Source of the DNA: an uncultured delta proteobacterium
GTDB lineage: Bacteria; Desulfobacterota; RBG-13-43-22
Direction: 5' to 3'
Length of the DNA stretch: 64,000 nucleotides
Assembly (NCBI GenBank): GCA_963711835.1
Contig: CAVQFQ010000005.1
Location: 160,001-224,000, forward strand
The notes under the pieces were generated by a model that searched no databases, was not told the origin of the DNA, and saw only the letters and a program-made list of their open reading frames with translations. Shown here one piece after another: positions 10,297-54,976 of the stretch (the first letter of the stretch is position 1; each line of letters begins with the position of its first letter). The position numbers and the translations under genes are program-made.

Positions 10297-10511
10297 GGTG
10301 GTTGGGTATCTTGTTTTTGAGTTTTCCAAAAGGGGACTCGGCGCCATAATTCCGGCCCGAATCAGTTAAGTCGATTAGGAGAAGGGCATTCACCCAACCT
10401 CTTTTGGCGCTTTGGTTTGGGCCTGCACCGAAAACAATTTTGAAATTTGGCCCGGGAACGAAGCTCCTGGCGTTTAGATGGAAAACTCAAAAAACAAGAT
10501 ACCCAACCACC
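10297..10511. mobile_element. free-standing ~215-bp IR-bounded hairpin element (core unit D)
   Basis: ~32-bp TIR ggtggttgggtatcttgtttttgagttttcca / tggaaaactcaaaaaacaagatacccaaccacc; flanks tcatttg/ttatttg; interior homologous to the cores of elements A and B. Confidence 0.8.
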
Positions 10512-10749
10512 TTATTTGGGAAGTCAGAGATAAATTCTCAAAATAGGCTGACTAAGCAACTAATGAGACCTTTATACTATAAAAAGGGAACCCTTGACAA
10601 CGGGCTAATAAAATTATAAAAATTAGAGGACCGGCCGGTGTTGGAAAAGCGAACCTATTTCAGGCCGGCCAATGGCTGTCAGGCAATAATTAAACGAACA
10701 TCGACAAGGAATTTAAAAGAATCCTTTCTATTTTGAAGAGACTCGCATA

Positions 10750-11229
10750 GTGAGCACCCGAAGACCGGCCGCACTTACCGGGCTTATTAAATTTTTAGCC
10801 TCGGGGACCTATCTCGGGTATAGTCCCCTGGCTTCCGGCACCTTCGGGTCCCTCTGGGGGATTCCGGCGGCTTTTTGGCTTTCTTCTCAAAGGCCGTTAA
10901 CCCAGGGGGTGATCCTGATTTTTTCGATCCTCTTTTCCGTTTTCCTATCGGGGGAGGCAGCCGGGATTTGGGGGGAGAAAGATCCGTCAAAAGTCGTCGT
11001 GGACGAAATTGTCGGCTATATGACCGCCATGGTTTTTCTCCCTTTTTCCTGGGCCACGGCCTGGACCGGGTTTGTTGTTTTCAGGGTCATGGATGTCTGG
11101 AAACCGTTTCCCATCCGGAATATTGATCGGGATCTCCCCGGAGGCTGGGGGATCGTTTTGGATGATGTTCTGGCCGGGGTTTACACCCAGGTCCTGCTGC
11201 GGTTCTTATTGGCTTATCGGGTCCTATAA
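10750..11229 (+). CDS. pgpA: phosphatidylglycerophosphatase A
   Basis: ASGTFGSL, DPSKVVVDEIVG, KPFPI, GIVLDDVLAG. Confidence 0.95.
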   Translation: MSTRRPAALTGLIKFLASGTYLGYSPLASGTFGSLWGIPAAFWLSSQRPLTQGVILIFSILFSVFLSGEAAGIWGEKDPSKVVVDEIVGYMTAMVFLPFSWATAWTGFVVFRVMDVWKPFPIRNIDRDLPGGWGIVLDDVLAGVYTQVLLRFLLAYRVL

Positions 11230-11231
11230 TC

Positions 11232-12494
11232 ATGGAACTACGGGTTGAAATCATAGGCATCGGCAACGAATTGATCACCGGGCGGATCTTCGACCGGAAT
11301 GCCGGTTATGCTGCCGGGCGGCTGCATTCCAATGGATTTAAAGTAACCCGCATCCTATTTGTCGGCGATTACCCCCAAGCCATACGAACCGCCTTAAAGG
11401 AGGCCCAAAAGCGCGCCGATGCGGTTTTAGTAACCGGAGGACTGGGGGGGACCCTGGATGACATTACGGTTGAAGTGGTCAGTCGCGTTTTCAACCGTCC
11501 TCTGGTCCTTCATCCGGACCTTGAAAGTCAACTAAAACGCTATCTCAAAAAGAGCTCTATTCCCTGGGATCCCCTCTTCGAAAAAATGGCCTGGTTGCCG
11601 GAAGGCGTGGAATTGTTCCATCCCCGGCCGAAGGCCTGCGGTTTCTTCCTGGAAGAAAAAGGGAAACCTTTCTTTTTTCTCCCCGGGGTCCCGGCGGAAA
11701 TGCGCCGCCTCTTAGACCGTTGCATCATCCCTTATTTGCTGCACCGGCACCCCGGGCAAGGGGTCCTGAAGCAACGGATTTATAAGATCTTCGGCTTGTT
11801 GGAACCTGAAATCGACCATCGGCTGAAAGACCTTGAAAGCGGGGATAAAACCGTTCAGTTGGGATTCTATCCCAATTTTCCTGAAAATCACTTAACGGTA
11901 TTGGTCCGGGCGGAAAAAGCCCTTTCGGCGGAACGGAAGCTGGATAAACTGGAAAGGGTAATTGAAAAACGTCTTGGCCCCTATATCATCTCAAAAAACG
12001 ATCAAACCCTGGAACAGGTGGTCGGGGAATTGCTGCTGCAAAAAAAATGGACCCTCTCCATCGCCGAATCCTGCACCGGAGGGTTGATCGGCCATCGCCT
12101 GACCAGTTGCCCGGGCAGCTCGGCCTATTTTGATCGGGGGATGATTACTTACAGTAATCGGGCTAAAACGGAAATGTTGGGCGTACCCAAAAAGGTCCTG
12201 GTACGGTCCGGGGCCGTGAGCCGGGAAACGGCCCTTTTAATGGCCCGGGGCATTCGCGAAATCAGCAAGTCCAATCTGGGTCTGGCCGTCACTGGAATCG
12301 CGGGGCCGGGAGGGGGATCTCCCGAAAAACCGGTCGGAACGGTCTGGATCGCCCTCTCGTCTCCCAAGGGAGAAAAGGCCGTCCACTATCTCTTTGGCGG
12401 ACGCCGGGAGCAGGTCAAGATCCTTAGCGCCTATACGGCCTTGAACTGGGTCCGGAGGGTATTGATAGATGATTCGTGCCTTTTTAGCCCTTGA
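11232..12494 (+). CDS. cinA: competence/damage-inducible protein CinA (NMN deamidase fusion)
   Basis: GNEL, TGGLG..DDIT, PGVPAEM; AESCTGG, TGIAGPGGG. Confidence 0.93.
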   Translation: MELRVEIIGIGNELITGRIFDRNAGYAAGRLHSNGFKVTRILFVGDYPQAIRTALKEAQKRADAVLVTGGLGGTLDDITVEVVSRVFNRPLVLHPDLESQLKRYLKKSSIPWDPLFEKMAWLPEGVELFHPRPKACGFFLEEKGKPFFFLPGVPAEMRRLLDRCIIPYLLHRHPGQGVLKQRIYKIFGLLEPEIDHRLKDLESGDKTVQLGFYPNFPENHLTVLVRAEKALSAERKLDKLERVIEKRLGPYIISKNDQTLEQVVGELLLQKKWTLSIAESCTGGLIGHRLTSCPGSSAYFDRGMITYSNRAKTEMLGVPKKVLVRSGAVSRETALLMARGIREISKSNLGLAVTGIAGPGGGSPEKPVGTVWIALSSPKGEKAVHYLFGGRREQVKILSAYTALNWVRRVLIDDSCLFSP

Positions 12495-13035
12495 ATTTCC
12501 GGCTTCCATCAGGGAGAAGATAACCGGGTATATTAAAAGTCTTCAGAACGTTTCTCCCAAAACCAGATGGGTTAACCCCCGGCAGGTCCACTTGACTTTA
12601 AAATTTTTCGGCTCCCTGGAACAGGAGACCCTGGATCGGATCGCAACCGCTCTTGCTTCTCTCTTGACCAGCTTCGCCCCGTTCAGCCTCACCTTAAACG
12701 GTGCCGGAGGGTTTCCCAAGCTATTCCGCCCCAGGGTAATCTGGGTGGACTTAGGGGGTGAAAAGGAGTACCTGAAGGGACTGCAGCAGGCGCTGGAAGA
12801 AACCCTCTCCCCCTTGGGAATAGCGAGGGAAGACCGGCCCTTTCAGCCTCATTTGACCTTGGGCAGGAATAAAATCCCTGAGGTAAACGAGCCCTTGTAT
12901 CACCTTCTGAGAAATTGGGTCGAGCCCGAATCGGAGCCCTTCCGGGTCGACGAAGTTATTTTATTCCAAAGTGATTTGAAGCCCGGGGGACCCGTTTATA
13001 CCAAATTGAAAGTCTTCCCTTTGGGAGAAAAATAA
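12469..13035 (+). CDS. thpR: RNA 2',3'-cyclic phosphodiesterase (2H family)
   Basis: Two HxT motifs (HLTLKFFG, PHLTLGR). Confidence 0.93.
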   Translation: MIRAFLALEFPASIREKITGYIKSLQNVSPKTRWVNPRQVHLTLKFFGSLEQETLDRIATALASLLTSFAPFSLTLNGAGGFPKLFRPRVIWVDLGGEKEYLKGLQQALEETLSPLGIAREDRPFQPHLTLGRNKIPEVNEPLYHLLRNWVEPESEPFRVDEVILFQSDLKPGGPVYTKLKVFPLGEK

Positions 13036-13084
13036 AAGAAATAAGGACTAACCTTTTTAAAAAAAATTAAATTCAGGGGGAACT

Positions 13085-14095
13085 ATGAAACAAGACGGTG
13101 ATAAAAACAAGGCGGTTGAAATGGCTATGACCCAAATTGAAAAACAGTTCGGCAAGGGATCGATCATGCGCCTTGGGTCCGAAGCCTTAAACGTTGATAT
13201 CCCGGTCATTCCCACAGGCGCCTTATCGCTGGACATTGCCACCGGCATCGGAGGGATACCCCGGGGGCGAGTCATCGAAATCTTCGGACCCGAATCCTCG
13301 GGAAAAACCACCCTGGCCCTGCATACCATTGCCGAGGCCCAAAAACGGGGCGGGATGGCCGCTTTTATTGATGCCGAACATGCCCTGGATGTGAATTATG
13401 CCAGCAAGCTGGGAGTAAACTGCGATGACCTACTGGTATCCCAGCCCGATAACGGCGAACAGGCCCTTGAAATCGCCGAAATTTTGGTCCGCAGCGGTGC
13501 CATGGATATTGTCGTTGTGGATTCTGTGGCCGCCCTGGTCCCCCGGGCTGAGATCGAGGGCGAGATGGGTGACGCTCATATGGGTCTGCAGGCCCGGCTC
13601 ATGTCCCAGGCCTTGCGGAAGTTGACCGGTACGATCAGTAAGACCCATACCTCTCTGATCTTTATCAACCAGATCCGTCATAAAATCGGAGTCATGTTCG
13701 GAAACCCTGAGACCACTACCGGAGGCAATGCCTTAAAATTTTACGCCTCCCTCCGGCTGGATATACGCAAAATCGGGGCCCTCAAAGACGGCCAGGAAAT
13801 CATCGGCAACCGGACCCGAGTCAAGGTAGTCAAGAATAAGATTGCCCCCCCTTTCAAGGAAGCGGAATTCGATATCCTCTTCGGAGAAGGGATTTCGGTG
13901 GAGGGGGATGTTTTGGACTTGGGGGTGGCCCATGATATCGTCGAAAAAAGCGGGACCTGGTATTCCTATAAAGGAAACCGGATCGGTCAGGGCCGGGAAA
14001 ATGCCAGGATTTATCTCCGGGAACACCCCGAGATGCTGCAGGAAGTGGAAACCCAAATCAAAGAGGCCTACGGTCTGATCAGGGAAAAACCGTAA
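13085..14095 (+). CDS. recA: recombinase RecA
   Basis: [30 protein letters not shown]. Confidence 0.99.
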
Positions 14096-14152
14096 CCTAC
14101 TAAGCGTTCGGCGTTCGGCTCTTAGCGAATACCCAAAAAAATTCGAGCAAAA

Positions 14153-14252
14153 GAGTTTGTCCCAAGGTTACGTGATTTTTAAGCACTTCATTCGTCGAGT
14201 GCTTCAGGGGTCTTCATTTCAAGGATTGTCCGCCAAAACGCCGGTAGCCTGA
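14153..14252. mobile_element. truncated copy of MITE family A (A3)
   Basis: gagtttgtcccaaggttacgtgatttttaa...cttcaggggtcttcatttcaaggattgtccgccaaaacgccggtagcctga matches element 18350-18681. Confidence 0.85.
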
Positions 14253-14276
14253 GCGCTTTTATAGAAAGGATTTAAT

Positions 14277-16925
14277 TTGAAGACCGGGAAAGAGATTCGC
14301 CAGGAATTCCTGGACTATTTCAAACAACAGGGCCATGACATCGTTCGGAGCGCCTCCCTGATCCCCAGGGATGACCCGAGCCTGCTCTTTACCAATGCCG
14401 GTATGGTGCCCTTTAAACGGGTCTTTTTAGGGGAAGAACACCGGGATTATGTGCGAGCCGCTTCCAGCCAAAAATGTGTCCGGGCCGGGGGGAAACACAA
14501 CGATCTGGAAAATGTGGGCCGGACCGCCCGCCATCACACTTTTTTTGAAATGCTGGGTAATTTCTCCTTCGGCGATTATTTTAAGACCGAGGCCATTCGC
14601 CTGGCCTGGAATCTCTTAACCCAGGTTTATGGACTGCCCCCCCAACCCCTATACGCCTCGGTCTACAGGGAAGACGAGGAGGCCTATCGGATCTGGCACG
14701 ACGAGATAGGCCTGCCCCAAGAACGCATTGTACGTCTGGGGGAAAAGGATAATTTCTGGTCCATGGGCGATACCGGGCCCTGCGGCCCCTGTTCGGAGAT
14801 CCTGGTCGATCTGGGACCCGAAGCAGGCTGCCGACGGCCGGAATGCGCTCCGGGTTGTGATTGCGACCGTTACCTGGAAATATGGAACCTGGTCTTTATG
14901 CAATATAACCGGGATCAGGAGGGCCGGCTGACCCCCCTGCCCAAACCCAGTATCGACACCGGGATGGGCTTGGAACGGATCACAGCTGTGCTTCAGGGAG
15001 TGGCCAATAATTTTCAGACCGATCTCTTCCGGGAAATTATCCGGCGGATCGAAAAAATTTCCGGCGTCTCGATAGGCCAACAGGATTCCACCGATGTATC
15101 CATCAAAGTCATCGCCGACCATAGCCGGGCCTTGGCCTTCCTGCTGGCCGATGGCGCCATACCCTCCAATGAAGGCCGGGGCTACGTGGTGCGTCGTATT
15201 TTGCGGCGGGCCTCCCGGCACGGCAAGGTCCTGGGTATTGAAAACCCTTTTCTCTTCGGCCTCTGTGAGGTCGTGGCGGAGACCATGTCCGATGCCTATC
15301 CGGAAGTCAGGGAACAGATCCCCTTTACCGCCCAAATCGTCCGCAGGGAAGAAGAACGTTTTCTGGAAACCCTGGACCATGGCCTGAAGCTCCTGTCCGA
15401 GGAAATAGACCGCCTGCATCAAAGCGACGGCCGGGTTTTACCGGGGGCCCTGATCTTCAAGTTATACGATACCTATGGATTTCCCTTGGATATTATTCAG
15501 GATGTCGTCCGGGAGCATAACCTGGAGCTCGATCAGGAAGGCTTCCAGGCTCATATGAAAAAGCAGCGGGAGATGTCCCGCCAGGCCTGGAAGGGAAGCG
15601 GGGAGCGGGAAATTAAAGAGGTCTACAAGACCCTGATGGGCAAAAGGCTGACCAATACCTTTGTCGGGTATGAAACTCTGGAAAAGGAATCCGAGATCCT
15701 GGCCCTGATTCAGGAAGGACAGGAAATGACCCGGATCGAACACCCCGGGGAGGTGGAGGTCGTGGTGGCGGAAACCCCCTTCTATGCCGAATCGGGCGGA
15801 CAGATCGGGGATCAGGGATCCTTGACGGCCGAACAAGGCCTGCTTTCCATTGAAGAAACCTATGCCCTTCCCAGCGGGCTGATCCTGCATCGGGGCCGGA
15901 TGCAGGCCGGATCCCTGGCTGTTGGGGATAAAGTAATCTTATCGGTTTCCAAGGATTGGCGGGCCCCGACGGCTCTTAACCATACCGCCACCCACCTGCT
16001 GCATGGGTCTTTGCGCCTTATTTTTGGAGAACAGGTCAAGCAGGCCGGCTCTCTGGTCACCCCTCAGCGCCTGCGCTTTGATTTTACCCATTTTTCGGCT
16101 TTGACCTTTGAGGAACTCCAGGGTGTGGAGGAAATGGTCACTACCCAGATCCTTCAAAACTGGCCGATCGAGACCCGGATTCTGGATTATGAATCAGCCC
16201 GGGCCACCGGGGCCATCGCCCTTTTTGAAGAACGCTACGGAGACCGGGTTCGCCTGGTCCGGATGGGAGATTTTAGTCAGGAATTATGCGGCGGAACGCA
16301 TACCCGGCGGACCGGGGACATCGGACCCTTTAAGATTATTTCCGAGGCCAGTGTGGCCGCCGGGGTCCGGCGAATCGAAGCCGTTACCGGGAAAGAGGCC
16401 CTGAAATTCATCCACCAGGAGGAAGCCCGGCTCCAGGCCCTGGGAGAACTCTTAAAAGTCCAACCTGATGAATTGCTTCCCCGTCTGGAAAGGCTCCTGG
16501 CCCACCAAAAAGAACTGGAAAAGACCGTTGCCCGCTTAAATAAATCCCTCCTGGGCGGCGGTGGGCTGGAAACCTTCTTATCCCAGGCCAGACTGGTAAA
16601 GGGAGTAAAGGTCCTCTCCATCCCCGTGCCGGTTGAAGAGGCCAAAGAGCTTCGAGACTTGGCCGATTCCCTGCGTGACCGTTTAGGATCAGGGATTATC
16701 ATCCTGGGGGGAGTTAAAGGGGATAAGGTCCTCCTGGTTACCGTGGTATCCAAGGACCTGATATCCAAATTTCAGGCCGGAAAGATTATCAAGACCATTG
16801 CCAGGGCCCTGGGCGGGGACGGGGGCGGCCGGCCCGATATGGCCCAAGCCGGGGGCACGCGACCGGATTTGCTCGAGACTACTCTGGCCCGGGTCTATGA
16901 CTGGATAAACCTCGAAGTTGCATAA
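14277..16925 (+). CDS. alaS: alanine--tRNA ligase
   Basis: FTNAGM, HHTFFEMLGNFSFGDYFK, HTATHLLH, ELCGGTH, GGGRPDMAQAGG. The last codons come from element C1. Confidence 0.99.
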   Translation: MKTGKEIRQEFLDYFKQQGHDIVRSASLIPRDDPSLLFTNAGMVPFKRVFLGEEHRDYVRAASSQKCVRAGGKHNDLENVGRTARHHTFFEMLGNFSFGDYFKTEAIRLAWNLLTQVYGLPPQPLYASVYREDEEAYRIWHDEIGLPQERIVRLGEKDNFWSMGDTGPCGPCSEILVDLGPEAGCRRPECAPGCDCDRYLEIWNLVFMQYNRDQEGRLTPLPKPSIDTGMGLERITAVLQGVANNFQTDLFREIIRRIEKISGVSIGQQDSTDVSIKVIADHSRALAFLLADGAIPSNEGRGYVVRRILRRASRHGKVLGIENPFLFGLCEVVAETMSDAYPEVREQIPFTAQIVRREEERFLETLDHGLKLLSEEIDRLHQSDGRVLPGALIFKLYDTYGFPLDIIQDVVREHNLELDQEGFQAHMKKQREMSRQAWKGSGEREIKEVYKTLMGKRLTNTFVGYETLEKESEILALIQEGQEMTRIEHPGEVEVVVAETPFYAESGGQIGDQGSLTAEQGLLSIEETYALPSGLILHRGRMQAGSLAVGDKVILSVSKDWRAPTALNHTATHLLHGSLRLIFGEQVKQAGSLVTPQRLRFDFTHFSALTFEELQGVEEMVTTQILQNWPIETRILDYESARATGAIALFEERYGDRVRLVRMGDFSQELCGGTHTRRTGDIGPFKIISEASVAAGVRRIEAVTGKEALKFIHQEEARLQALGELLKVQPDELLPRLERLLAHQKELEKTVARLNKSLLGGGGLETFLSQARLVKGVKVLSIPVPVEEAKELRDLADSLRDRLGSGIIILGGVKGDKVLLVTVVSKDLISKFQAGKIIKTIARALGGDGGGRPDMAQAGGTRPDLLETTLARVYDWINLEVA

Positions 16926-17166
16926 AAATTGATCGATAAATGGTCTTTTCTAAATTAAAATGGTGTGTTCTAACGATTTTGGAGTTGAGACCATAATTCA
17001 CTCCAGGTGAGGATTACCATCCTAAAAAGTATCGATCAATTTTTACCCTTTGGGAAAGTCCGGGAAGTCACATCTCCTTTGTTTTCCAGGGCTCGCGGTA
17101 TGCATATACAACTTCGCCCTGGACGCCTCGGATCTGTAACTTCCGAAACTTTTGCAACATCGAGGT
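16909..17166. mobile_element. MITE family C, copy 1
   Basis: TIR acctcgaagttgca / tgcaacatcgaggt; close copy at 48489-48743. Confidence 0.88.
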
Positions 17167-17181
17167 AACCGAGGAAGGTCG

Positions 17182-18261
17182 CTAAGACTTACAGACGCCG
17201 TTTTTCAGATTCTGGTAGATGCGATCCGAGAGATAGCGGATCACGGTGCTCTTTCTCTTCCCCCACCCTTCTCCGGGTTTTTCCTTGTTTTCAATGAAAA
17301 CCGAAAGGACGTAATCGCGGGCACCGGGCTGGTTCTTCTGGTAAACGATCCCGCAATCGGCGTTCAGGCCCCGGACATAACCGGTTTTATCGGCTACGGC
17401 CGCCCCATCCTGTTTGATCTGATAGGTCTCGATCCGGTCATGGACATTTTTCAGCAGGATCTCGTTCATCTTCTGCGAAAAATGGGGACTGACTAATTTT
17501 TGTTCGTAAAGCAGGGAAAAAAATAAGGTGGCGTCGGCCGCCGAGGTTTGGTTAAGGTAGGTCCGGCCGCCGTCGGGAATAAGTTCCTTGACTTTGGTCT
17601 GGTGAAAGCCTAATTTTCGAAGCAAGACGTTGACGGCCACGAATCCTTGCACGGTGTTCCCCTGTCCCAGACGCCGGATGAGCTGGTTGGTGGCCTGGTT
17701 GTCGCTCACGGCGATCATCCGCTCCATTTGGTGCTCCAACTCCGGGGTCTCCTGCAACTCCTGACGGGAAATCTGGTCGTAAACCGTGAGCATGACAAAG
17801 GGCTTTATCAGGCTGGCGGCGTTCCGGGGAACGGTACCATTGATATCCACCAGCATCTTCTTTTCGAAAAGATCATAGATCTGGAGAGAGACCTCATCGC
17901 CGGACTGAAGATGCTTGATGGCGCGCAGATAAAGGATTTCATTCTCCACCAGGTTTTGCAGAGAACCGTTGGCATTCAGGCTGAGGGGTTTAATCGGATA
18001 GCCCGGCGCAGGCCGATTCCGCCGGACCGAGCCAAGGGGCTTGGAAGCGGAGGCTCTCCTTTTCTTTTGTTTGCTGAGGGAGGATTTCCTGAGGGCCTTC
18101 TTTTTTTTTATTTTTTTACTTTTAGTCTTCTTCTCTGAAAGGGTTTGGGATTTGGTTGCAGCCCAAGCTTGGGACGGCACGGCCCCGGAAGCGATTGAAG
18201 CCGCCAGGAATAGCAGGACGGTTAAAAGAGAGAAAAGCGATTTTTTCTTGAACAGGGCCAT
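17182..18261 (-). CDS. secreted serine hydrolase, class A beta-lactamase-like (Beta-lactamase2 fold)
   Basis: Signal peptide, Lys-rich linker, SxxK (ASLIK), SDN and KTG motifs. Confidence 0.85.
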   Translation of the reverse strand: MALFKKKSLFSLLTVLLFLAASIASGAVPSQAWAATKSQTLSEKKTKSKKIKKKKALRKSSLSKQKKRRASASKPLGSVRRNRPAPGYPIKPLSLNANGSLQNLVENEILYLRAIKHLQSGDEVSLQIYDLFEKKMLVDINGTVPRNAASLIKPFVMLTVYDQISRQELQETPELEHQMERMIAVSDNQATNQLIRRLGQGNTVQGFVAVNVLLRKLGFHQTKVKELIPDGGRTYLNQTSAADATLFFSLLYEQKLVSPHFSQKMNEILLKNVHDRIETYQIKQDGAAVADKTGYVRGLNADCGIVYQKNQPGARDYVLSVFIENKEKPGEGWGKRKSTVIRYLSDRIYQNLKNGVCKS

Positions 18262-18349
18262 GTAGACCCATTATAGAAACTTTTTTTTTCTGTCAAGAAT
18301 TATTAAATCGGTTTCCTCCAAGGGCATTAAATAATTTGACTTTTTTTTA

Positions 18350-18681
18350 GGGATAGTCCCAAAGTTACATGATTCTCAAACCGAAGGGGTAGCCTCTTAA
18401 AATATTAAATCACCCCAAAGGGCTTCAGGGGTCTTGATTTCAAGGATTGTCCGCCAAAACGCCAGTAGCCTGAACCCGGGCAGGAAGTTTATAATGGGGT
18501 TTAGAAACAGGCCAACACCAAAGTCCCGCCTCGGCGGGATGAATGCCCGGCTCCCAACCAACTTAGAAATTCGGGCCGGGTTGGGGCTACGGATTACCCT
18601 TTCGGACAACCTTGAAATCAAGACCCCTGAAGCCCTCGACAAATGGTTAGGTTAAAAATCACGTAACGTTGGGACAAACTC
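18350..18681. mobile_element. MITE family A, copy 1 (nested inverted repeats)
   Basis: Outer TIR gggatagtcccaaagttacatgatt / aatcacgtaacgttgggacaaactc; 8-bp TSD TTTTTTTA (18342-49, 18682-89); inner IR-bounded unit 18420-18635. Confidence 0.9.
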
Positions 18682-18697
18682 TTTTTTTACGAGGATC

Positions 18698-19843
18698 ATG
18701 AACAGCGGATTTAAGACATTACCCGGCTCCTGGATTGAAATCAACCTTTCGGCCCTCCGGGAAAATTTCCGGACCATCAGAAACTTGACCCGGCCGGAGG
18801 CCGGGATTTTGGCGGTCGTTAAGGCCGATGCCTATGGTCATGGCTTGATCCCCGTGGCCCGGGAATTGATCCGGATGAAGGTCGGCGCCTTGGGCGTGGG
18901 CACGGTTGAAGAAGGCATATTAATCAGGACCCGGATCAAGGAGGCCGTGCCCATCGTGGTCCTGCTGGGTGCTCAAGCGGAGGAAAGCCCGGCCTGCTTT
19001 CATTACCGTCTGACCCCTATCGTCTATTCCTACCCGGTGGCCGAAAGGCTGCATCAGGAAGGCTTGCGAAGGAAAAGGCCTCTTCCAATCCATCTCAAGG
19101 TGGATACCGGCATGGGCCGCCTGGGGGTGCCCTGGAAAGAATTCGGAGGCTTCCTCCAGCAGCTCCGCCCTCTGAAAGGTATCCTCGTAAAAGGCCTGAC
19201 TTCTCATTTCGGGCGGGCCGACGAAAAAGGACAACGGGATAACCGACTCCAGTGGAATCGCTTTAAAACGGCCCTTGAGCAGGCCCGCCAACTCGGTTTT
19301 TCTCTGTCTGAAAACCACCTGGCCAACAGCGCCGCCCTCCTGAACGACGAAAAAACCCATCTCGACTACGTTCGCCCGGGGATCCTGCTCTACGGTTCCA
19401 ACCCGCTCGGCCCGCTGGCTCTTAAGAAGGGCTTCGACCTTAAGCCGGTCATGACCTTTAAGAGCCGGATCCTTCAGGTAAAAAAAATACCGGCCGGGGT
19501 GGGCGTCAGTTACGGGGGGACCTACCGGACCGCGCGAGCCGAATGGCTGGCCGTCATCGCCGCCGGCTATGCCAACGGCTACCTCAGGCAGCTCTCCAAC
19601 CGGGCCGAGGTTTTAATCCGGGGGCAACGTTTCCCGGTAACCGGCCGGGTCTGCATGAACCTGACCGTGGTTCGCCTGCCGGCCGGGTTGAACTGTACTC
19701 CCGGAGAGGAGGCGGTCCTTTTAGGGGCGCAAGACCGGGAACGGATCACGGCGGAAGAACTGGCCCGGCAGGCCGGCACCATACCGTATGAAATTTTTTG
19801 CCTCTTGGGGCCCTTGAATCCTCGAACCTATCTTAATCATTGA
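18698..19843 (+). CDS. alr: alanine racemase
   Basis: AVVKADAYGHG PLP motif, HLKVDTGMGRLG, VRPGILLYG, GRVCMN. Confidence 0.97.
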   Translation: MNSGFKTLPGSWIEINLSALRENFRTIRNLTRPEAGILAVVKADAYGHGLIPVARELIRMKVGALGVGTVEEGILIRTRIKEAVPIVVLLGAQAEESPACFHYRLTPIVYSYPVAERLHQEGLRRKRPLPIHLKVDTGMGRLGVPWKEFGGFLQQLRPLKGILVKGLTSHFGRADEKGQRDNRLQWNRFKTALEQARQLGFSLSENHLANSAALLNDEKTHLDYVRPGILLYGSNPLGPLALKKGFDLKPVMTFKSRILQVKKIPAGVGVSYGGTYRTARAEWLAVIAAGYANGYLRQLSNRAEVLIRGQRFPVTGRVCMNLTVVRLPAGLNCTPGEEAVLLGAQDRERITAEELARQAGTIPYEIFCLLGPLNPRTYLNH

Positions 19844-19880
19844 CTTAAAAGGCTAAAGGGCTTAATTTATATAATTCGTT

Positions 19881-20200
19881 GGTATCGTTTAAAAGTTGTG
19901 GCATTATATTTCTGAACCACGATAGAAAGGGACCGGGGGTTTTGATTTCAAGGTTGTCCACCCTAAACTCCTCACCATGAAATCCCGCTTTTAGCGGGAC
20001 TGGAAGAGTGACGATAATGCCTTAAGCAGGCCTTCACCAAAGCTCTTTGTCCGGTTGGGTGAATGCCCGGCTCAAAACCACCCTTAGAAATCAGGGCCGG
20101 ATTGGAGGGAAGGATCCCCCTTTGGACAAGCCTTGGAATCAAGACCCCCGGTCCCCAGTTAGGCAATAATGCCCCAATGCCAAAACTTTTGAACCATACT
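19881..20200. mobile_element. MITE family B, copy 1 (nested inverted repeats)
   Basis: Outer TIR ggtatcgtttaaaagtt / aacttttgaaccatact; perfect 8-bp TSD AATTCGTT; inner unit 19929-20155; 320 bp, same length as copy 2. Confidence 0.9.
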
Positions 20201-20236
20201 AATTCGTTAGATCATGTTGCCGGAAAGAATAGACTC

Positions 20237-21898: not shown

Positions 21899-21908
21899 AG
21901 GGACAAAC

Positions 21909-22637: not shown

Positions 22638-22649
22638 GGCCGGAGGGTC

Positions 22650-42516: not shown

Positions 42517-42610
42517 AATCATCTCCAAAGCAATTGGAGATGATTCAGGGGTCAAGGGGTCGAGGATTCGAGGGTTCAAGGGAAATGCTTAAGAACTAAA
42601 AAGAGTTGAC
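42517..42610 (+). repeat. hairpin + octamer repeats + dead four-helix-bundle gene start (H1)
   Basis: aatcatctccaa..ttggagatgatt; gggtcaag/gggtcgag/gattcgag/ggttcaag; ATG CTT AAG AAC TAA AAA GAG TTG; second copy at 52926. Confidence 0.7.
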
Positions 42611-42623
42611 CGATAAAACCCGT

Positions 42624-42686
42624 TTAGAATTTTAGTATTTGGATTTTGAATTTGTTTCGGATTTCGATATTCGGATTTCGGGTTTC
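42624..42686. repeat. degenerate heptamer tract (ATTTCGG/ATTTCGA)
   Basis: atttggattttgaatttgtttcggatttcgatattcggatttcgggttt. Confidence 0.65.
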
Positions 42687-42708
42687 TAAAAAGCATCCAG
42701 CATCAGCA

Positions 42709-43581: not shown

Positions 43582-43628
43582 AACGTGACGTTTTCATAGC
43601 AGTTTTTTTTGGCTTTGTCAATTTATTT

Positions 43629-43921
43629 GAATTTGTCCCAATGTTACGTGATTTTTAAGCTATTCATTCTTAAAGGGCTTCAGGGGTCTTGATTTCAAGG
43701 TTGTCCGAAAGGGAATCCATAGCCCCAACCCGGCCCCACTTTCTAAGTTGGTTGGGAGCCGGGCATCACCCAAGACAATAAATCGCTTTGGTGTTGGCCT
43801 GTTTCTAAACCCCATTATAAACTTCCTGCCCGGGATCAGGCTGCCGGCATTTTGGCGGACAATCCTTGAAATCAAGACCCCTGAAACCCTTTTGAGAATC
43901 ACCTAACTTTGGGACAATCCC
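43629..43921. mobile_element. MITE family A, copy 2 (opposite orientation to copy 1)
   Basis: TIR gaatttgtcccaatgttacgtgatt / aatcacctaactttgggacaatccc; TSD atttattt/attttttt; inner IR as in A1. Confidence 0.9.
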
Positions 43922-44022
43922 ATTTTTTTGATAAGGGAAGATCGGCTGGAATTGATGTTTTTCCGAAAGCTTGCTATGATGAGAACACATCCGGAAACAA
44001 TCTTTTGCGGAGGTGCTCGGGA

Positions 44023-44412: not shown

Positions 44413-44421
44413 AGTCCTTAA

Positions 44422-44570
44422 CAGGTTGCTGAAAAAGGCCCATTAGGGTGTTGCCTTCATACCTCGTCATTGCGACGTACCTCTATGTACGCCTCATTCC
44501 TCGAGATTTCGGGCGCCTTGTATCTGGACCTTTTTGAGCAACCTGTAAAAATGAATTTTTCCGCATCCTG
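44422..44570. mobile_element. MITE family E (IS5-like ends)
   Basis: caggttgctgaaaaa / tttttccgcatcctg flanked by TTAA on both sides; internal second arm tttttgagcaacctg; central gtac..gtac hairpin. Confidence 0.78.
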
Positions 44571-44591
44571 TTAAGAAACCAACCAAACATC

Positions 44592-45149: not shown

Positions 45150-45287
45150 ATAAATGAAACCGGATTTTTCCTTTACTTTTTTTGAGCATCGGAATATATA
45201 AAAAGATTATCGTTAATTTTCTGGCAAATGGTGTTGATCAGGGTTCTTATCCCTTTTCCCCTATTTGTCAGGGAGAAAGGGATTAGA

Positions 45288-47135: not shown

Positions 47136-47141
47136 CTTCCC

Positions 47142-47724
47142 TTGCCCTTACCTTTTCTCTCGTTAAGCCATGGGGAAATCCCCTTTGGTTTTTTCAATAT
47201 CGAAAGCGATCTAGTGCTGCTCAGCCGCGTTTTCTTTTTTGCGGCTGATTTTTGCCGGGCCGTAACCGGCCTTTCCAGCCAATCGACTCAACCGGATGGG
47301 GCCGTCGCCCTAACCGGATATCACCTGAATCCGGGAGATATCGGGGATCTGCACGGGGCTATCCAGGGTGTCCGGTTTACGGGTTTCATCGGAGAAGTTT
47401 ATCGGCTCTTTCCCTTTCCGGAAGATCTCAGGACACTTCAAACAAAACCCGGAGGGATACCGGACCAGAGAGAGAGTCGAAAGGATTGTCCAAGGCTATT
47501 CTCCGAAGAGGTCGATCTTTTTTGGCCTGGACCACGGCGGTCAATCCATTCGGATTGGGGATGTTCGGTTCGACCGAGAGGGATTCGAACGGCTTTTAGG
47601 GTATGTTTGGCTGGGTGGATATCCCCGCTGGCGAAATGGGATTAGACCAGCCTATGTGCAGGCCATGAAGGAAGCAGTTGAGCTGTCCGACAATCCTCTG
47701 CTGAAGGGGATGGTCTTTAAATAA
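47142..47724 (+). CDS. hypothetical protein (frameshift near 47435)
   Basis: SHGEIPFGFFNIESD...IGDLHGAI.G | FKQNPEG...YVWLGGYPRW. Confidence 0.65.
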
Positions 47725-47886
47725 CGGAATAAACCCTCCCTGGTAGCGCTAGGGGCGAAATGAGGTATCCAGCACCCCGTTCGGTTTGACAGAACTAAAA
47801 ACAGGTTTTAAAATAAGGATGGATTTGTATAAAGGATATCGGAAAACCTGTCCGGGGTGAACCACCCCAACCCAGGGAGGATGACT

Positions 47887-48489
47887 ATGGATCAAGAAAA
47901 TAGACCCGTTATTCTCATTATTGATGATGAGGAAATTATCCGCCAGGCCTGTCATAAGGTCTTAAGCCAGGAAGGATTCCAAGTCGAACTGGCCTCGGAT
48001 GGGATCGCCGGCATAAAAAAAGCCAGAGAGATACAACCCGACCTGGCTATCATAGATTTAAAAATGCCCGGCCTGCCCGGTCCGGAAGTTCTGGATGAGC
48101 TGACCAGGATCGATCCGTTTATGGCCAAGGCAGTCATTACCGGCTATGCCACCATCGATACGGCTGTTGACTGCATTCAGAGAGGTGCTTCCTATTTTTT
48201 GATGAAACCTTTTCTCCCCGACGAGCTGAAAACCATTACCAAAAAGGCCCTGGAAAAGAGGGAGAAACTGATCAAACAGGAATTCCAGCGGGATGATAAT
48301 AAAACGGGGCAGGTCCCCATTTCCACCATCATTTTCCAGGAAATGGCCTTCCCTTTAAAAGAGATGGAACAATTCTTCTCCCTACTGGAAACACGAGGCA
48401 TTATCGGCGGGGAGATGGTGGGACCTTTTTTGAGAGCCAAGGATCAACTCGATACCCTTAACAAGGTTATCCGGAAGTGGTTGACCTAA
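47887..48489 (+). CDS. response regulator receiver protein
   Basis: ILIIDDE, DLKMPG, ITGY, KPF. Confidence 0.88.
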   Translation: MDQENRPVILIIDDEEIIRQACHKVLSQEGFQVELASDGIAGIKKAREIQPDLAIIDLKMPGLPGPEVLDELTRIDPFMAKAVITGYATIDTAVDCIQRGASYFLMKPFLPDELKTITKKALEKREKLIKQEFQRDDNKTGQVPISTIIFQEMAFPLKEMEQFFSLLETRGIIGGEMVGPFLRAKDQLDTLNKVIRKWLT

Positions 48490-48743
48490 CCTCGAAGTTG
48501 CATAAAAAATGATCAATAGAGGGTTTTTTCTAAATTAAAACGGTGTGTTCTAACGATTTCAGAGTTGGGACCAAAATTCACTCCAGGTGAGGTTTAACAT
48601 CCTAAATGGTTCGATCAATTTTTACCCTTCGGGAAAGTCTGGGAAGCAGTCCCGCCGCGGCGGATTGTCCAGGTCCCGCCCAGGCGGGATTCGCCCTGGA
48701 CGCCTCGGATCTGCAACTTCCGAAACTTTTGCAACATCGAGGA
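48489..48743. mobile_element. MITE family C, copy 2
   Basis: TIR acctcgaagttgca / tgcaacatcgagg; TA flanks; sits on the stop codon of the upstream gene. Confidence 0.88.
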
Positions 48744-48755
48744 TAACCTAAGCGG

Positions 48756-49502
48756 ATGAAAACCCTATTACTGATTTTTGGGTTAGGGATGTTGGTTATC
48801 TTTTCAGCCGCTGACTGCCATGGCGGAAAGGTAATGTCTTTCAAGGATTCAGGTTCGAACTTCAATACCAGACGCAAGGGGATGGTGGAAACCCAGATAA
48901 AGGCCCGCGGAGTTCTGGATTCACGGGTCCTGTCGGCCATGGGAAAAGTGGAAAGGCACCGCTTTGTCCCTCTGCAGCTCCAAGAACTGGCCTATTCCGA
49001 TCAACCCCTGCCGATTGGTGACGGGCAGACCATCTCCCAGCCCTATATGGTAGCCCTGATGACTGAATTATTGGAACTCAAAGGAGGAGAAAAAGTCCTG
49101 GAAATCGGCACCGGTTCGGGATATCAGGCCGCCGTCCTGGCCGAATTGGTCAAGGAGGTTTATACCATTGAGATTATTGAAGCCCTGGCCCGCCAAGCCG
49201 AAAACCGTCTACAGGAATTAAGGTATAAAAATATCCGGGTCCGATCCGGTGACGGCTATCTGGGATGGCCTGAAGCCGCTCCCTTCGATGCCATCATGGT
49301 CACCGCCGCTCCGGATCATATCCCCCAACCGCTCATCGATCAGTTAAATGAAGGAGGCCGTCTGGTGCTGCCTATCGGTAAATACCCCTACCAGGAATTA
49401 AAAAAAGGGATTAAAAAGGGCGGCCAGGTTGAAATCAAAGAGGTCCTGTCGGTGCTCTTTGTCCCCATGACCGGTGAAGGGGTCAGGCAAAGAAAAAAAT
49501 AA
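48756..49502 (+). CDS. pcm: protein-L-isoaspartate O-methyltransferase
   Basis: QTISQPY, VLEIGTGSGYQAA, GDGYLGWPEAAPFDAI. Confidence 0.95.
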   Translation: MKTLLLIFGLGMLVIFSAADCHGGKVMSFKDSGSNFNTRRKGMVETQIKARGVLDSRVLSAMGKVERHRFVPLQLQELAYSDQPLPIGDGQTISQPYMVALMTELLELKGGEKVLEIGTGSGYQAAVLAELVKEVYTIEIIEALARQAENRLQELRYKNIRVRSGDGYLGWPEAAPFDAIMVTAAPDHIPQPLIDQLNEGGRLVLPIGKYPYQELKKGIKKGGQVEIKEVLSVLFVPMTGEGVRQRKK

Positions 49503-49537
49503 CCGGTCCCTTTTTGAGCCCCTTCTTACGCTGACCC

Positions 49538-50634
49538 ATGACCTTCCGCACTCTTCTTTTTATAACCATCGTCCTCCTGATCTATTTTGCTCTCCATCTC
49601 GGTCTTTTCTTCCTGATTCGAAAATTTTTTGGCCTTACCAAGCCCCGAAGTCAAGTCATTCTGGGATTTATCCTCCTTCTGCTGGCGTTCAGTTTTATAT
49701 TTTCTTTTATTTGGACCATTTTTGACAGTCACGGGTTTATCCGGGTCTTCTATTATGGGTCCGCCGTCTGGCTGGGGGTGCTGGTTAATGCCCTGATCCT
49801 CTTCAGCTTGGGACTTGTTTTCTGGAAAGGCGCCCGGACCTTCGGATTAAACCTGGAAGGAAAGATTCTTGGATATTGCTTGATCCTCGTCACCACCCTT
49901 TATTCAGGCTACGGCTTCATCAATGCCGGCAATTTGAGAACCACCACGCTGTCCCTTTCCATTAAAAACCTGCCGGAGGCCTGGCGGGGCAAAAAGATCA
50001 TTCAGATTTCCGATCTGCATTTGGGGATTATCCATGGAGTCGGATTAACGGAAAAGATCGTTTCCCTGATCGAACCGCACCATCCGGATCTGGTCGTCAT
50101 TACCGGAGACCTTTTTGACGGAACCGGGGATGACCTGGAGACCCTCGTCGCCCCCTTTAATCGCCTCCGGTCGCCCATTCTTTTTATTACCGGAAATCAC
50201 GAGACCTACCTGGGGGTGGATAAGGCCCTTAAGGCCATCCGGAAGACCCGGATCAGACTCCTGCTTGATGAACAGATCGAGCTCGATGGCCTCCGGATCA
50301 TCGGCAGTCGCCTTTCCTGAAAGATGGCAGAAAAAAGATCTTGGCCCCCTGCTCAGGGACCTTGACCTTTCCAAACCTAACATCCTCCTGATCCATGCCC
50401 CCACGCAGGTTGAAACGGCCCGAAAGGCCGGGATCGCCCTGCAGCTTTCCGGACATACCCACAACGGCCAGATGCTTCCCCTGAAACTTTTCACCAGCCT
50501 GATTTTTAAAGGCTACGATTATGGTTTGCATCGGCCGGGGATTTTGTATCTATACCAGCAGTGGTGCGGGCACCTGGGGGCCTCCCCTGAGACTGGGAAG
50601 CCGATCGGAAATCGTTGTCTTGACCCTGCAATAA
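49538..50634 (+). CDS. membrane metallophosphoesterase (YkuE-like), two frameshifts
   Basis: SDLHLG, TGD, GNHE | LLIHAP, SGHTHNGQ | GTWGPPLRLG. Confidence 0.88.
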
Positions 50635-50641
50635 AGCAACC

Positions 50642-52924
50642 GTGATCCCTAACCCGACTTACAAGAATCTGGAATCTCTTTTTTTCCCCAAGGCCGTGGC
50701 CGTCATCGGCGCTTCCAACCGCTTCGGCAAGTGGGGGTTCAATCTCTCGGCCACCCTGTTGACCTCCGGCTTTCGCGGTCCGGTTTATTTGATCAACCCC
50801 AAAGAAAAAAGGGTCCTGGGGCGCCGGGCCTTTTCCAATCTGAATGATTTACCCGGTCCGGCAGACTTGGCCGTCCTGGCCGTACCGGCGCTGCAGACCA
50901 TCCCGCTGATCGAAGAATGCGGCCGGATAGGCATTCCCAACGCCCTGGTGGTGGCTTCCAATTTTAAAGAGGTGGGCCGGGAAGGGGCCGAACTGGAACA
51001 ACAACTGGTCCAGGTTGCCCGGGACCACGGCCTTACCCTGGTTGGTCCCAACACCATGGGCATGGTCAGCACTCCGGTGGGCCTGGAAATCCTTTTCATG
51101 CCCTTGGGGGTCAAGGCCGGCCCGGTGGACGTGATCTCTCAATCCGGCAACATCGGTCTTCAGATCATGGAACTGGGGATGAAAGAGGGCCTGGGCTTCT
51201 GCCGCTTTGTAGGTTCAGGCAACGAGGCCCTCCTGGGAGTGGAGGATTATCTGGCCCACTTTGGAAGGGATCAGCACTCCCGGGTGATCGTACTTTATTT
51301 GGAATCGGTCCGCAACGGCGAACGCTTTTTTGAAGTCGCCCGGACCATCACGCCCCACAAACCTATCCTGGCCCTCAAAGCCGGTAAGACCGGCCAGGGG
51401 TCCCAGGCGGCCCGGTCCCACTCCGGTGCCGTGGCCCAATCTCCGAAACTCATTTCCGATCTCTTTAAACAGCTTGGTATTGTTGAAGCCGGCTCCACCG
51501 AAGAACTGATCGACCTGATGAAAACCTTCAGCCTGATCCATCCGCCCCGGGGGGACCGCCTGGCCGTGGTCAGCCTGGGAGGCGGATGGGGAGTGACCAC
51601 TACCGATGCTGCCGCCCTGAAGGGGTTAACCCTTCCCGCCCTCTCCCCGGCCTTGTTGGATCAATTAAATCCCCTATTGCCTCCCTTCTGGAGCCGCCAG
51701 AATCCCCTGGATCTGGCCGGGAGCACCAACCGACAGGCCCATCTCGAGGTGTTAAGGATCCTGACCGAGAGTGAGGAAATAGATGCGGTTGTCGCCCTGG
51801 GGATGCTGGCCGGTCTGAGAAAATCCTTCTCCCAACTAATCCACTGGAAAGGCCTGTTCGCCAAACTGATTCTTAAATCTCTTTTTCTCGGCTTGCTTGG
51901 ATTTCTGAAAAGGCCCCGAAGAAAGAAGACCGATGCCCTGCAAAAAACCGCCGGTCCCTCGAAAAAAGGGGGCTTTCGAATCAGGGATTTTCAGCTTTGG
52001 CGGGACTCCCATTTTATGGACCGGGTTCGAGGGCTTATGAAGACCAGCGGAAAACCCATCCTGTTGGTGACCTTCCTGCCCGGGTTGGCCGTCAGGATGA
52101 CCCGGCGCTTTCATCAACCCATCTTCGGCAATCCGGAACGGGCGGTGGAGGCTATGAGCGGCCTTATGCAGTACGGCCGCTTTTTAAACGATTGGGGCCA
52201 GGGATCGCTTCAACCGGGCTCCCTCGTTTCCCGGAAGGAGACCCTACCTGAATTTTCAGACGACCTTTCTTCTCTGGATGAATTTCAAGGAAAAAAAATT
52301 CTGGCCCACTATGGTATCCCGACGGTCAGGGAGGGAATCGCTGCCCATCGGACCGAAGCCCTCAGGTTGACTGGAGAAATCGGATATCCGGTGGCCCTGA
52401 AAATCCATTCCCCGAATATGCTCCATAAAACCGATCTGGGAGGGGTCATTCTTAACATCAGTCACGAAGAAGGATTAATTCAATCTATCAGTGCCTTGGA
52501 GGCCAAATTTCCTGAATTACATGATCCTACCGGCAGAGCCGGATTCCTGATTCAGGAGATGGTAACTGAAGGGGTAGAGGTTTTGCTGGGCATGACCTCC
52601 GATCCGCAATTCGGACCGCTCCTGGTTTTAGGATTGGGCGGTATTATGGTCGAGGTCCTGAAGGATGTTGTTTTTGCCAAGCCGCCGGTGACCCGACTTC
52701 AGGCCGAACGCCTCTGGACTTCCTTGAAGGGTGCCGCCCTCCTTTCCGGATTCCGTGGACGCCCCCCGGCCGACCTCCAGGCTCTCATTGAAGCGACTAT
52801 TAATTTTTCTTATTTAATTGATGAGTTGCAATATAAATTTAAAGAAATAGATGTGAATCCATTAATGGTTCTAAGCCCAGGGAAAGGGGTCAAAGCCCTT
52901 GATGCCCTATTTATTAAAAAATAA
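50642..52924 (+). CDS. ADP-forming acyl-CoA synthetase (acetate--CoA ligase family)
   Basis: VAVIGAS, VGPNTMG, SQSG, SHSGA, NPLDL, YPVALK..S...HKTD.GGV, DVNPL. Confidence 0.92.
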   Translation: MIPNPTYKNLESLFFPKAVAVIGASNRFGKWGFNLSATLLTSGFRGPVYLINPKEKRVLGRRAFSNLNDLPGPADLAVLAVPALQTIPLIEECGRIGIPNALVVASNFKEVGREGAELEQQLVQVARDHGLTLVGPNTMGMVSTPVGLEILFMPLGVKAGPVDVISQSGNIGLQIMELGMKEGLGFCRFVGSGNEALLGVEDYLAHFGRDQHSRVIVLYLESVRNGERFFEVARTITPHKPILALKAGKTGQGSQAARSHSGAVAQSPKLISDLFKQLGIVEAGSTEELIDLMKTFSLIHPPRGDRLAVVSLGGGWGVTTTDAAALKGLTLPALSPALLDQLNPLLPPFWSRQNPLDLAGSTNRQAHLEVLRILTESEEIDAVVALGMLAGLRKSFSQLIHWKGLFAKLILKSLFLGLLGFLKRPRRKKTDALQKTAGPSKKGGFRIRDFQLWRDSHFMDRVRGLMKTSGKPILLVTFLPGLAVRMTRRFHQPIFGNPERAVEAMSGLMQYGRFLNDWGQGSLQPGSLVSRKETLPEFSDDLSSLDEFQGKKILAHYGIPTVREGIAAHRTEALRLTGEIGYPVALKIHSPNMLHKTDLGGVILNISHEEGLIQSISALEAKFPELHDPTGRAGFLIQEMVTEGVEVLLGMTSDPQFGPLLVLGLGGIMVEVLKDVVFAKPPVTRLQAERLWTSLKGAALLSGFRGRPPADLQALIEATINFSYLIDELQYKFKEIDVNPLMVLSPGKGVKALDALFIKK

Positions 52925-52925
52925 G

Positions 52926-53040
52926 GATCATTTCCAATGTTAGTTAGAGATGATCCCGGGTGCAAGATTCGAAGGTTCAAGGGTAATGCTCAAAAACTAT
53001 AAAGAGTTGAAGATTTAGGAGAGGATTTATCCGCTATGTT
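52926..53040 (+). repeat. hairpin + octamer repeats + dead four-helix-bundle gene start (H2)
   Basis: gatcatttccaa..tagagatgatc; gattcgaaggttcaaggg; MLKNYKELKI*ERIYPLC. Confidence 0.7.
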
Positions 53041-53105
53041 TTTATGTTTAATAAATTACAATATGATTTAAATATAATATATAGTAATAGTAAAGTATAA
53101 CTTTA

Positions 53106-54653
53106 ATGAAAAAACAGCCTAACTGTCTGGTTCTCTCCCTTATCATTGTATTAGTTTTTTTTAATATAACCTGGGCTGGGGAGGAGTTCCAGCTCCGGAT
53201 TCTTTATCTGAATGACTTCCATGGTTTTGCCGAACCCCAGCAAGCCCTGGGAAAGGAGGGATTGGCGGGCGGCATCGCTTCGCTGGCCGGGGAAGTTAAT
53301 CGCCTGCGCCAGGGCCAACCCACCCTCCTGCTGGCCGCCGGCGACATGATCCAGGGGAATCCCTGGGCCAACCTCTTTCAGGGCGAATCGACGATCGATA
53401 TAATGAATGCCATGGGGTTTACGGCCATGACTTTGGGAAACCATGAGTTTGACTTCGGGCAGGAAGTCCTTCAAAAACGGATCTCCCAAGCCCAATTTCC
53501 AATACTAACAGCCAACCTGAGTCCCTTCCCCGGGCTAAAACCTTATATAATAAAAAATATGGCCGGCTTCAAGATTGCCATTATAGGTCTGGTCACTGAA
53601 GATACCCCGGTGGCCACCCATCCCAAGAATGTTGAAGGGCTTCATTTTACCCCGGCCATCGAAACCACCCGGAAAATCCTCCAGGAATTGGGCGACACCC
53701 CGGATTTGATCCTGGTCCTGTCCCACCTCGGGCTGCCGGCGGATCGACGCCTGGCCCAGATGGTCAAGGGGATCCAGGTCATTGTCGGAGGCCATACCCA
53801 CACCCGGATTGAAAAACCTCTGCAGGTCAACGAGACCCTGATCGTCCAGGCCTGGGAACATGCCAAGGTGCTGGGAGTCCTCGATTTAACCCTGAAGGAT
53901 CGTGCCCTGACCCGGGCTCAGGGGAAGCTGATCCCCATTTCTCCCGACCCGGGAAAGACGACCCTCAGGTGACCGCCCTGGTTGATCACTATCGGAAGCA
54001 AGCCTCCCGAGTCCTGGATGAAGTCATCGGCCGGGCCGAGGTGGACCTGCAGGGAAAGGGATCCCGCCGCCGGGAAACCAATCTGGGAAATTTTTTAGCC
54101 GACATCCTGAGAAAAGAAGGCCAGGCGGATGTGGCCCTGATCAATGGCGGGGGAATTCGAGCCGATATCTCCCAAGGGCCGATTCGGATGAAGGACCTCT
54201 ATTCGGTTCTCCCCTTTCGCAATCACCTGGTGGTCATCAACCTTACCGGTAAAGAGCTCCAGGAAGTTTTAGAATATGGGCTTTCCGACTTAAGCGGGGA
54301 GGGCGGGCAATTCCCTCAGCTTTCGGGAATCCGGGTGACCTATGACCCGGCGGAGCCGGTCGGCCGGAGGGTCAAAACGGTTTGGATCAGGGAGCAACCC
54401 CTGGTCCCGGATACCCGCTATCAATTGGCCACCCTTGATTTTTTGCTGGCCGGCGGTGACGGATATTCCGTTTTTACAAAAATGGTCCGGGAGGATTCCG
54501 CTTATCCGGATTCTCAGAGAGTTGACCTCAAGCGCGGCCGTGTGGTCCTCTTCGATTCCGGAAGGGACCTGCGCGATATCGTCATTCAATCGACTTAGAG
54601 GACAGGAAAAGATCGCCCCGGCTCTGGAAGGTCGTCTACAACCTATAAAATAA
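53106..54653 (+). CDS. 5'-nucleotidase / bifunctional metallophosphatase (two frameshifts)
   Basis: NDFHG, AGD, GNHEFD, SHLG, GGHTH | ETNLGN, NGGGIR, PFRN, GGDGY. Confidence 0.9.
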
Positions 54654-54656
54654 ATT

Positions 54657-54976
54657 AGTATCGTTCAAAAGTTGAGGCACTGGTGCATTATGGCCTGACT
54701 GGGGACCGGGGGTCTCGATTTCAAGGCTTGTCCAAAGGGTGATCCTTCCCGCCAATCCGGCCCAGATTTCTAAGGTTGGTTTAGAGCCGGGCATTCATCC
54801 AACCGAACAAACAGCTTCGGTGTAGGCCTACTTAAGGCATTATCGTCAACCTTCCAGTCCCGCTAAAAGCGGGATTTCAAGGTGAGGAGTTTATGGTGGA
54901 CAACCTTGAAATCGAGACCCCCGGTCCCCTTCCATCGGGTATCAGAACTATAATGCCCAAACTTTTGAACGATACC
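54657..54976. mobile_element. MITE family B, copy 2 (opposite orientation to copy 1)
   Basis: TIR agtatcgttcaaaagtt / aacttttgaacgatacc; perfect 8-bp TSD AATAAATT; 320 bp. Confidence 0.9.

Follow-up and report, generated by a model that had tools for sequence, protein, structure and literature searches.

Prokaryotic miniature transposable elements with inverted repeats (MITEs), such as Correia/NEMIS, ERIC, RUP, Nezha and YPAl, are gene-less, intergenic sequences of 70–330 bp that carry terminal repeats, are flanked by duplications and occur in many copies, and the Correia elements have been reported to invert (cited passages of PMC10969869 and PMC3733652). It is by its ends that a MITE is defined, and what lies between them is taken for filler. 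Akin to them in size, build and placement are five elements (D, A1, B1, A2 and B2) in a 64,000-nucleotide stretch of DNA from an uncultured delta proteobacterium (contig CAVQFQ010000005.1, positions 160,001 to 224,000; hereafter the window), but here it is a conserved interior with an inner repeat of its own that is shared, in at least seven kinds of ends (shells), one of which lacks terminal repeats. The interior is the long-lived part, and the ends have been replaced at least seven times. We read these elements as non-autonomous MITEs of several families that enclose one shared, invertible and swapped module of ~215 bp (the core), likely kept for aiding the copying of its carrier, a reading whose chances we put at about even.

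A first-pass annotation of the window had described one core found alone (D) and inside two unrelated shells (A and B). Re-reading of the window bore out the five elements, their positions (Table 1) and their common core, and the likeness far exceeds chance: starting from the five interiors, an iterated profile recovered 126 distinct loci (E ≤ 1e-3) in the 3.9-Mb, 89%-complete genome of the window, against 0 in the reversed genome. Inner arms were found in all five elements, those of D differing from those of A and B on both arms together, and the reported 8-bp duplications are exact for A1, B1 and B2 and only 7/8 for A2. The motif series CAGGCC..ACCAAAG..TGAATGCCC, thought to be common to all five, held for the most part, the exceptions being TAGGCC/ACCGAAG in B2 and one A too few in A2. 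D, however, is no bare core, as it sits in a fourth shell (10253–10562) without terminal inverted repeats, and two shells was an undercount, four being common in the genome and at least seven in the bacterial family. An empty site in a relative was demonstrated for B1 only: in one contig of run X1, just 16 letters separate 19865 from 20210, which leaves out exactly B1 and one duplication. An opposite-strand joint in contigs of the same run may stem from other copies. The sequencing runs, from related strains, contained at most a fifth of the sequence words.

The core is a gene-less module in which arms of 31–33 bp enclose 147–152 bp, with six sequence motifs at fixed spacing, four of them between the arms. 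The spacings are 23/30/38/28/30 bp in 165 of 183 units from genera g1 and g4 and 22/30/39/31/29 bp in all 21 units from genera g2 and g3, which shows that the motif geometry is kept across four genera. Two diverged half-units lie head to head within it (alignment score 42 vs 10.9 ± 6.5, with 0/2000 shuffles as good). The edge of the arms is sharp, complementarity being 0.95 at position 31, 0.45 at 33 and 0.22 at 34, and after a fixed GG the outer arm part occurs as 40 different 9-mers, the two arms of a unit matching each other. The left half lay outside the search pattern; there, conservation reaches 90% or more in 20 of 74 columns across 43 distant copies, compared to a mean of 3.75 and a maximum of 11 in 300 simulations under a uniform-rate null, and private mutations in resident copies are scarcer at conserved columns (17/~2679 sites vs 55/~3657, p=0.001). 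GGCC, CCGG and GGNCC are neither strongly avoided nor favoured in the genome. We also observed that within each pair of interior motifs the five bases at the centre stand in direct rather than inverted orientation, with conserved G.G and C.C mismatches (alignment A2, columns 81–85/182–186 and 115–118/152–155), as if the core had been built by successive insertions at hairpin tips or held asymmetric recombination cores.

The inner units of B1 and B2 are 227–229 bp long, owing to a small inserted hairpin. Tiny hairpins of this sort (14–60 bp, sometimes nested several deep) turn up repeatedly at particular places in the core, as insertions or as substitutes for part of it, namely at 18524–18539, 19982–19999 and 54858–54875 in the window and at many other loci. 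At one locus (L014, G000:C10 ~53700–55850), a two-open-reading-frame, IS4-like element of ~2.2 kb interrupts the mini-hairpin of a B core and is flanked, by eye, by a 7-bp duplication.

Each shell has its own end sequence and its own duplication length, which shows that it is the shell that does the moving. Our set comprised 220 units with both arms, 88 from the genome of the window and 132 from other genomes or metagenome contigs. Shell ends were recognised by motif on both sides in 166 of these, on one side in 42 and on neither in 12; 11 of the latter have degenerate shell ends by eye, and one, locus L139, stays without an assigned shell. With end offsets allowed, duplications of at least 7 bp flank 18/36 shell A and 22/40 shell B elements; shell C duplicates TTAA (26/29), shell E at least 6 bp (5/8) and shell G 9 bp (2/3). 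A seventh shell, H, carries a diverged core in genera g2 and g3 with duplications of ~9 bp by eye, and one further shell occurs a single time (C14). Shells A, B and C pass the tests for MITEs, with terminal inverted repeats, target-site duplication, no coding capacity and many dispersed copies. Shell D has no terminal inverted repeat, and no direct repeat of more than 6 bp was seen in 50 copies; its left-end motif is present in 21/21 genomes of the family. That left end is a perfect hairpin in genera g2 and g3, and further hairpins, built from short tandem repeats, are likewise carried by the shell as payloads (loci L281–L310). Shells C and D occur elsewhere without the core or with other hairpins and are therefore carriers in their own right. 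At one genomic site (G000:C25:101513 / L123) one strain has a C-shell element where another strain has a D-shell element, which marks an insertion hot spot.

As to what moves the shells, the earlier guess of an IS1-, IS1595- or IS6-type transposase was wrong for shell B, whose ends are those of an ISH6 element. B-type ends flank a 451-aa ISH6 transposase in genome G094 (NF041731, 483 bits), in a complete element that carries no core. Judged by these common ends, shell B is a MITE derived from an ISH6 transposon; the ISH6 family resembles it in its ends and its 8-bp AT-rich duplication, and the likeness is limited to this shell. No transposase adjoins A-type ends in 301 genomes (IS1 and IS1595 were not part of this search), and such ends are absent from the 7 IS256 loci of the family. 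For neither shell C nor shell D was an autonomous partner found; by eye, the two IS110 loci have no D-type ends. An IS256 element in L415 was rejected as the partner of D: it has a short stretch in common with the right end of D and other termini. A single 355-bp element with A-like ends was also seen (L214, G299:C7), its inner repeat ending in a DnaA-box-like 9-mer.

The core flips in place and is exchanged between shells, neither of which the first-pass annotation had seen; its arms are homogenised. Among the 126 loci, 93 could be classed for shell and orientation, and 22 of these are reversed, in all four shells. At an orthologous D insertion in two species (L003/L004) the shells agree in orientation and the cores, 95% identical, are opposed, a flip in place that was seen in one of six same-shell orthologous pairs. 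Rare variants stand on both inner arms in 34 cases against 5.2 expected, and on both outer ends in 8 against 8.0. Reversed copies differ in where the crossover lies, some having it inside and others outside a 1-bp indel close to the inner end; copying driven by homology would account for this more readily than an invertase with a fixed site. A-type cores are found in six B shells, and two core-bearing A elements are nested inside D shells, a possible intermediate of shell exchange. Collapsed copies make up 31 of 139 two-ended elements, all with stubs of the arms, and do not cluster by shell sequence in a test that has little power on 70–90 bases.

A sequence model found the core in 20 of 21 genomes of the family (in 13 of them at E below 1e-28), the only genome without a match being 76% complete, at copy numbers from ~1 to more than 100 matches per genome. 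Outside the family there was one weak profile match in 145 genomes, and viral contigs gave 0 matches to the core pattern; the named records with the core are Deltaproteobacteria/Thermodesulfobacteriota assemblies. Fifteen of 190 pattern loci were missed by the profile and dropped as chance. Only 7 orthologous pairs were found among the 220 units. A genome of another family (G213; loci L227 and L261–L280) holds a unit of like build, with 31-bp arms, a 141-bp core and 44 matches, set in ISH6-type and other ends, often in tandem, and with a nested 23-bp inverted repeat that resembles an arm of the core in the window. The core profile misses this unit, so that homology would rest on the arm motif, and this unit with its related motif may point to a wider class.

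Taken together, our results support part of what had been proposed for the core. That it is a payload of different transposase systems, conserved beyond drift, stood up: it is not the deleted remnant of one known insertion sequence with the shells as ordinary subterminal sequence, and its likeness between shells is not of a degree that shuffled controls reproduce. Of the three payloads then considered, a protein-binding array would fit best; a structured RNA is not supported, and of the marks of a second-level mobile unit (a duplication of its own, free copies, an autonomous partner) none was found.

That the core is a structured RNA, or a bridge-RNA-like guide transcribed from the element, we regard as very unlikely. 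Its fold is stable (z −11.8 for A1 and −8.3 for D), mostly due to the arms; two-sided changes, counted for RNA, are found in 23 of 35 consensus pairs, all in the arms; many copies have a GAAA-type tip loop; G.T mismatches are in mild excess over A.C (107:77); and the repeat is present in one RNA library, seen as contigs only, which does not show transcription. Against this, Rfam gave 0 matches at gathering level in the window and, by E-value, only weak unrelated ones; among 103 cores no interior pair rose above the tree-aware null (best E 0.82); and the two interior motif helices had 0 two-sided changes in 58 sequences and retained their G.G and C.C mismatches. The core flips, its orientation shows no strand bias relative to transcription (34:36), and, by crude gene calls, convergent gaps are not favoured (15/117 vs 225/1382). 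A search for guides found no excess complementarity of core with shell flanks or target over permutations (51 lineages, k=5–8). The structured RNA payload of the first-pass annotation is thus not supported on any of the three counts of Rfam, covariation and strand bias, and we read the core as a DNA module. It is also a warning case, as the perfect covariation of a 32-bp stem would arise here from DNA-level copying between arms and not from RNA.

Conservation of the motifs without pairing points to protein binding on DNA, and, since the core is often lost, in one direction only, and the sites are mostly strain-specific, the core would have to earn its keep by what it does for the element. We envisage that flipping and arm matching would come about by template switching or homologous recombination between arms, with no dedicated invertase, and swaps by recombination between the arms of different copies. 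Template switching is described as homogenising arms and inverting spacers in the cited passages of PMC8604942. New shells may arise by insertion of an element with a core into another element, followed by trimming of its former ends as far as the stem. The motifs would bind a protein, either a host architectural factor or a factor used by many transposases, and the bound protein may bend the DNA that separates the two ends, or pair it, which would make the core a small-scale analogue of the central site of phage Mu. More tentatively, and with chances clearly short of even, the core might be a portable, transposase-agnostic transposition enhancer, that is, a fixed array of binding sites adoptable by any ends, DDE or not, which would have outlived and exchanged seven or more carriers within one bacterial family, as a parasite of parasites that evolves as a replicator in its own right. 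Should the core raise transposition, it would offer a small, direct test system for why some MITEs reach a hundred copies, and possibly a generic part for transposon vectors.

Several observations weigh against the core as an aid to the copying of its carrier. The core is not strictly needed, given the C and D shells that do without it, and three pairs of collapsed copies have a common junction, so that some may have moved without a core. No binding protein was identified: exact IHF consensus and strict DnaA boxes each gave 0/174, and neither is enriched. ISH6, IS256 and IS6 transposases were not found in the 89%-complete genome of the window. The tree has 18 orientation changes, a count that comes without a shuffle null and with 72 of 104 inner branches open, and the spacer inversions of PMC8604942, in the passages cited, are of 2–5 bp and in yeast, not of 150 bp. 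Finally, host-level selection could be the reason why conserved columns have fewer private mutations.

Three other explanations for a conserved core in several shells have to be weighed. It might derive, as a non-autonomous form, from some element whose ends are long and multi-site, or from an HUH 'TIRtron', and be moved by its own enzyme into other small elements as targets, the motifs being the sites of that enzyme. The sharp outer boundary with its fixed GG, the two homologous halves with evenly spaced motifs and the direct contact of arms and shells, without remains of any earlier shell, would all suit such an element, and the genome holds about eight full-length Y1 transposases bounded by inverted repeats. 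These proteins (G000 C5, C8, C10, C12, C15 and C17) are divergent, 285–335 aa long, with a C-terminal helix-turn-helix and inverted repeats that start GGGGAC or GGGGTC, and are of the TIRYT type, a class of Y1 transposases with the consensus GGGGWSAS (cited passages of PMC3733652; class also in PMC6006769). The outer arm octamer leans to this consensus (mean 5.73 vs 5.34, 1/2000 shuffles), but only 1 of 40 arm types matches it fully, and 40 different outer 9-mers are unlike the tips of a transposon. Moreover, there is no duplication at the arm ends (4-mers in 7/220 vs 11.7 in the control) and no clearly bare copy in 220 units, and no gene-bearing form is seen among 302 paired halves, of which 298 have less than 200 nt between them and the rest are an insertion sequence insertion or two separate copies; free arm pairs around a gene were not found. 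We therefore consider a self-mobile core rather unlikely.

Persistence throughout the family, and the lower load of private mutations at conserved columns of resident copies, could also be explained if the core were kept for the host, as dispersed binding sites for nucleoid organisation, supercoiling or replication that MITEs merely deliver. Such sites should hardly be as strain-specific as the empty site of B1 and the paucity of orthologous pairs indicate, or vary so widely in copy number, down to one genome with no core match, and we hold this to be improbable. Least of all do we favour a phase-variation switch that MITEs have spread and that a dedicated site-specific recombinase inverts. 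The size and arm length suit known invertible switches, the flip in place was observed between two species, and the genome has tyrosine recombinase matches; but the single full-length match looks by eye like a housekeeping Xer protein, the crossover position is variable, the arm sequence varies widely, A1 has no sigma-70-type promoter, and no bias in position or orientation to genes was seen.

Table 1. Core-bearing elements of the window and their parts (positions counted from the first nucleotide of the window).
Feature	Position	Strand	Remarks
Element D, full	10253..10562	-	310 bp; shell D around the core, TAG at both junctions
D inner unit	10297..10511	-	Arms 10297-10327 and 10480-10511, core between
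Sixth copy, truncated	14151..14255 (end approximate)	+	Shell A right end, one arm, ~20 bases of core
Element A1, shell A MITE	18350..18681	+	Exact 8-bp duplication TTTTTTTA; upstream of alanine racemase
A1 inner unit	18420..18635	+	Arms 18420-18452 and 18604-18635; motifs at 18476, 18508, 18543, 18573
A1 mini-hairpin, 16 bp	18524..18539	.	In place of the central hairpin of the core
Element B1, ISH6-type MITE (by its ends)	19881..20200	+	Exact 8-bp duplication AATTCGTT; between alr and argS
B1 inner unit	19929..20155	+	Arms 19929-19959 and 20124-20155; mini-hairpin 19982-19999
Element A2, shell A MITE, short left end	43629..43921	-	Duplication 7/8
A2 inner unit	43675..43889	-	Arms ~43675-43706 and ~43857-43889
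Element B2, ISH6-type MITE (by its ends)	54657..54976	-	Exact 8-bp duplication AATAAATT
B2 inner unit	54701..54929	-	Arms 54701-54733 and 54898-54929; mini-hairpin 54858-54875

The window holds other features of note besides those of Table 1. An unrelated small element at 44417–44575 has a 25-bp inverted repeat around ~82 bases, and a similar one is found in L293. Short tandem 7- and 8-mer repeats lie at 42544–42700 and are of a kind that also fills some D shells. The open reading frame at 17182–18261, divergent from A1, gives a weak match to a class A beta-lactamase-like domain that falls far short of the curated cut-off.

Outside the MITEs, the closest likeness is to REPINs with their RAYTs and to TIRtrons with their TIRYTs, which have, as here, two inverted arms that form a hairpin, no duplication at the ends of the unit and long persistence in a lineage (cited passages of PMC3337134, PMC3733652 and PMC6006769). 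According to the same passages, REPIN arms are short palindromes with a GTAG/CGTC foot and a variable spacer, whereas the core has neither, its spacer is conserved and the unit is not found free; by eye, no core arms were seen beside Y1 genes, and the unit does not qualify as a REPIN. TIRYT-like genes are present in the genome, but the core arms match the GGGGWSAS described for TIRtrons only loosely. In function, the nearest parallel may be the central strong gyrase site of phage Mu, a cis site that lies apart from the ends and helps them meet, as we would propose for the core by analogy; Mu is 38 kb long with one transposase, and we claim no sequence likeness between the two (cited passages of PMC10052514). 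A conserved invertible core common to unrelated ends is not described in the full-text literature that was covered, which includes passages of PMC10969869, PMC11602168, PMC3337134 and PMC5581495 and leaves most subscription journals outside its scope. The shells are ordinary MITEs, with B of the ISH6 family; what appears to be new is the one conserved, invertible core that unrelated ends have in common. Mobile insertion cassettes and TIMEs likewise consist of non-autonomous ends with a passenger, and their passengers are genes that differ between copies. Unlike these, the elements described here have one non-coding passenger, common to unrelated ends.

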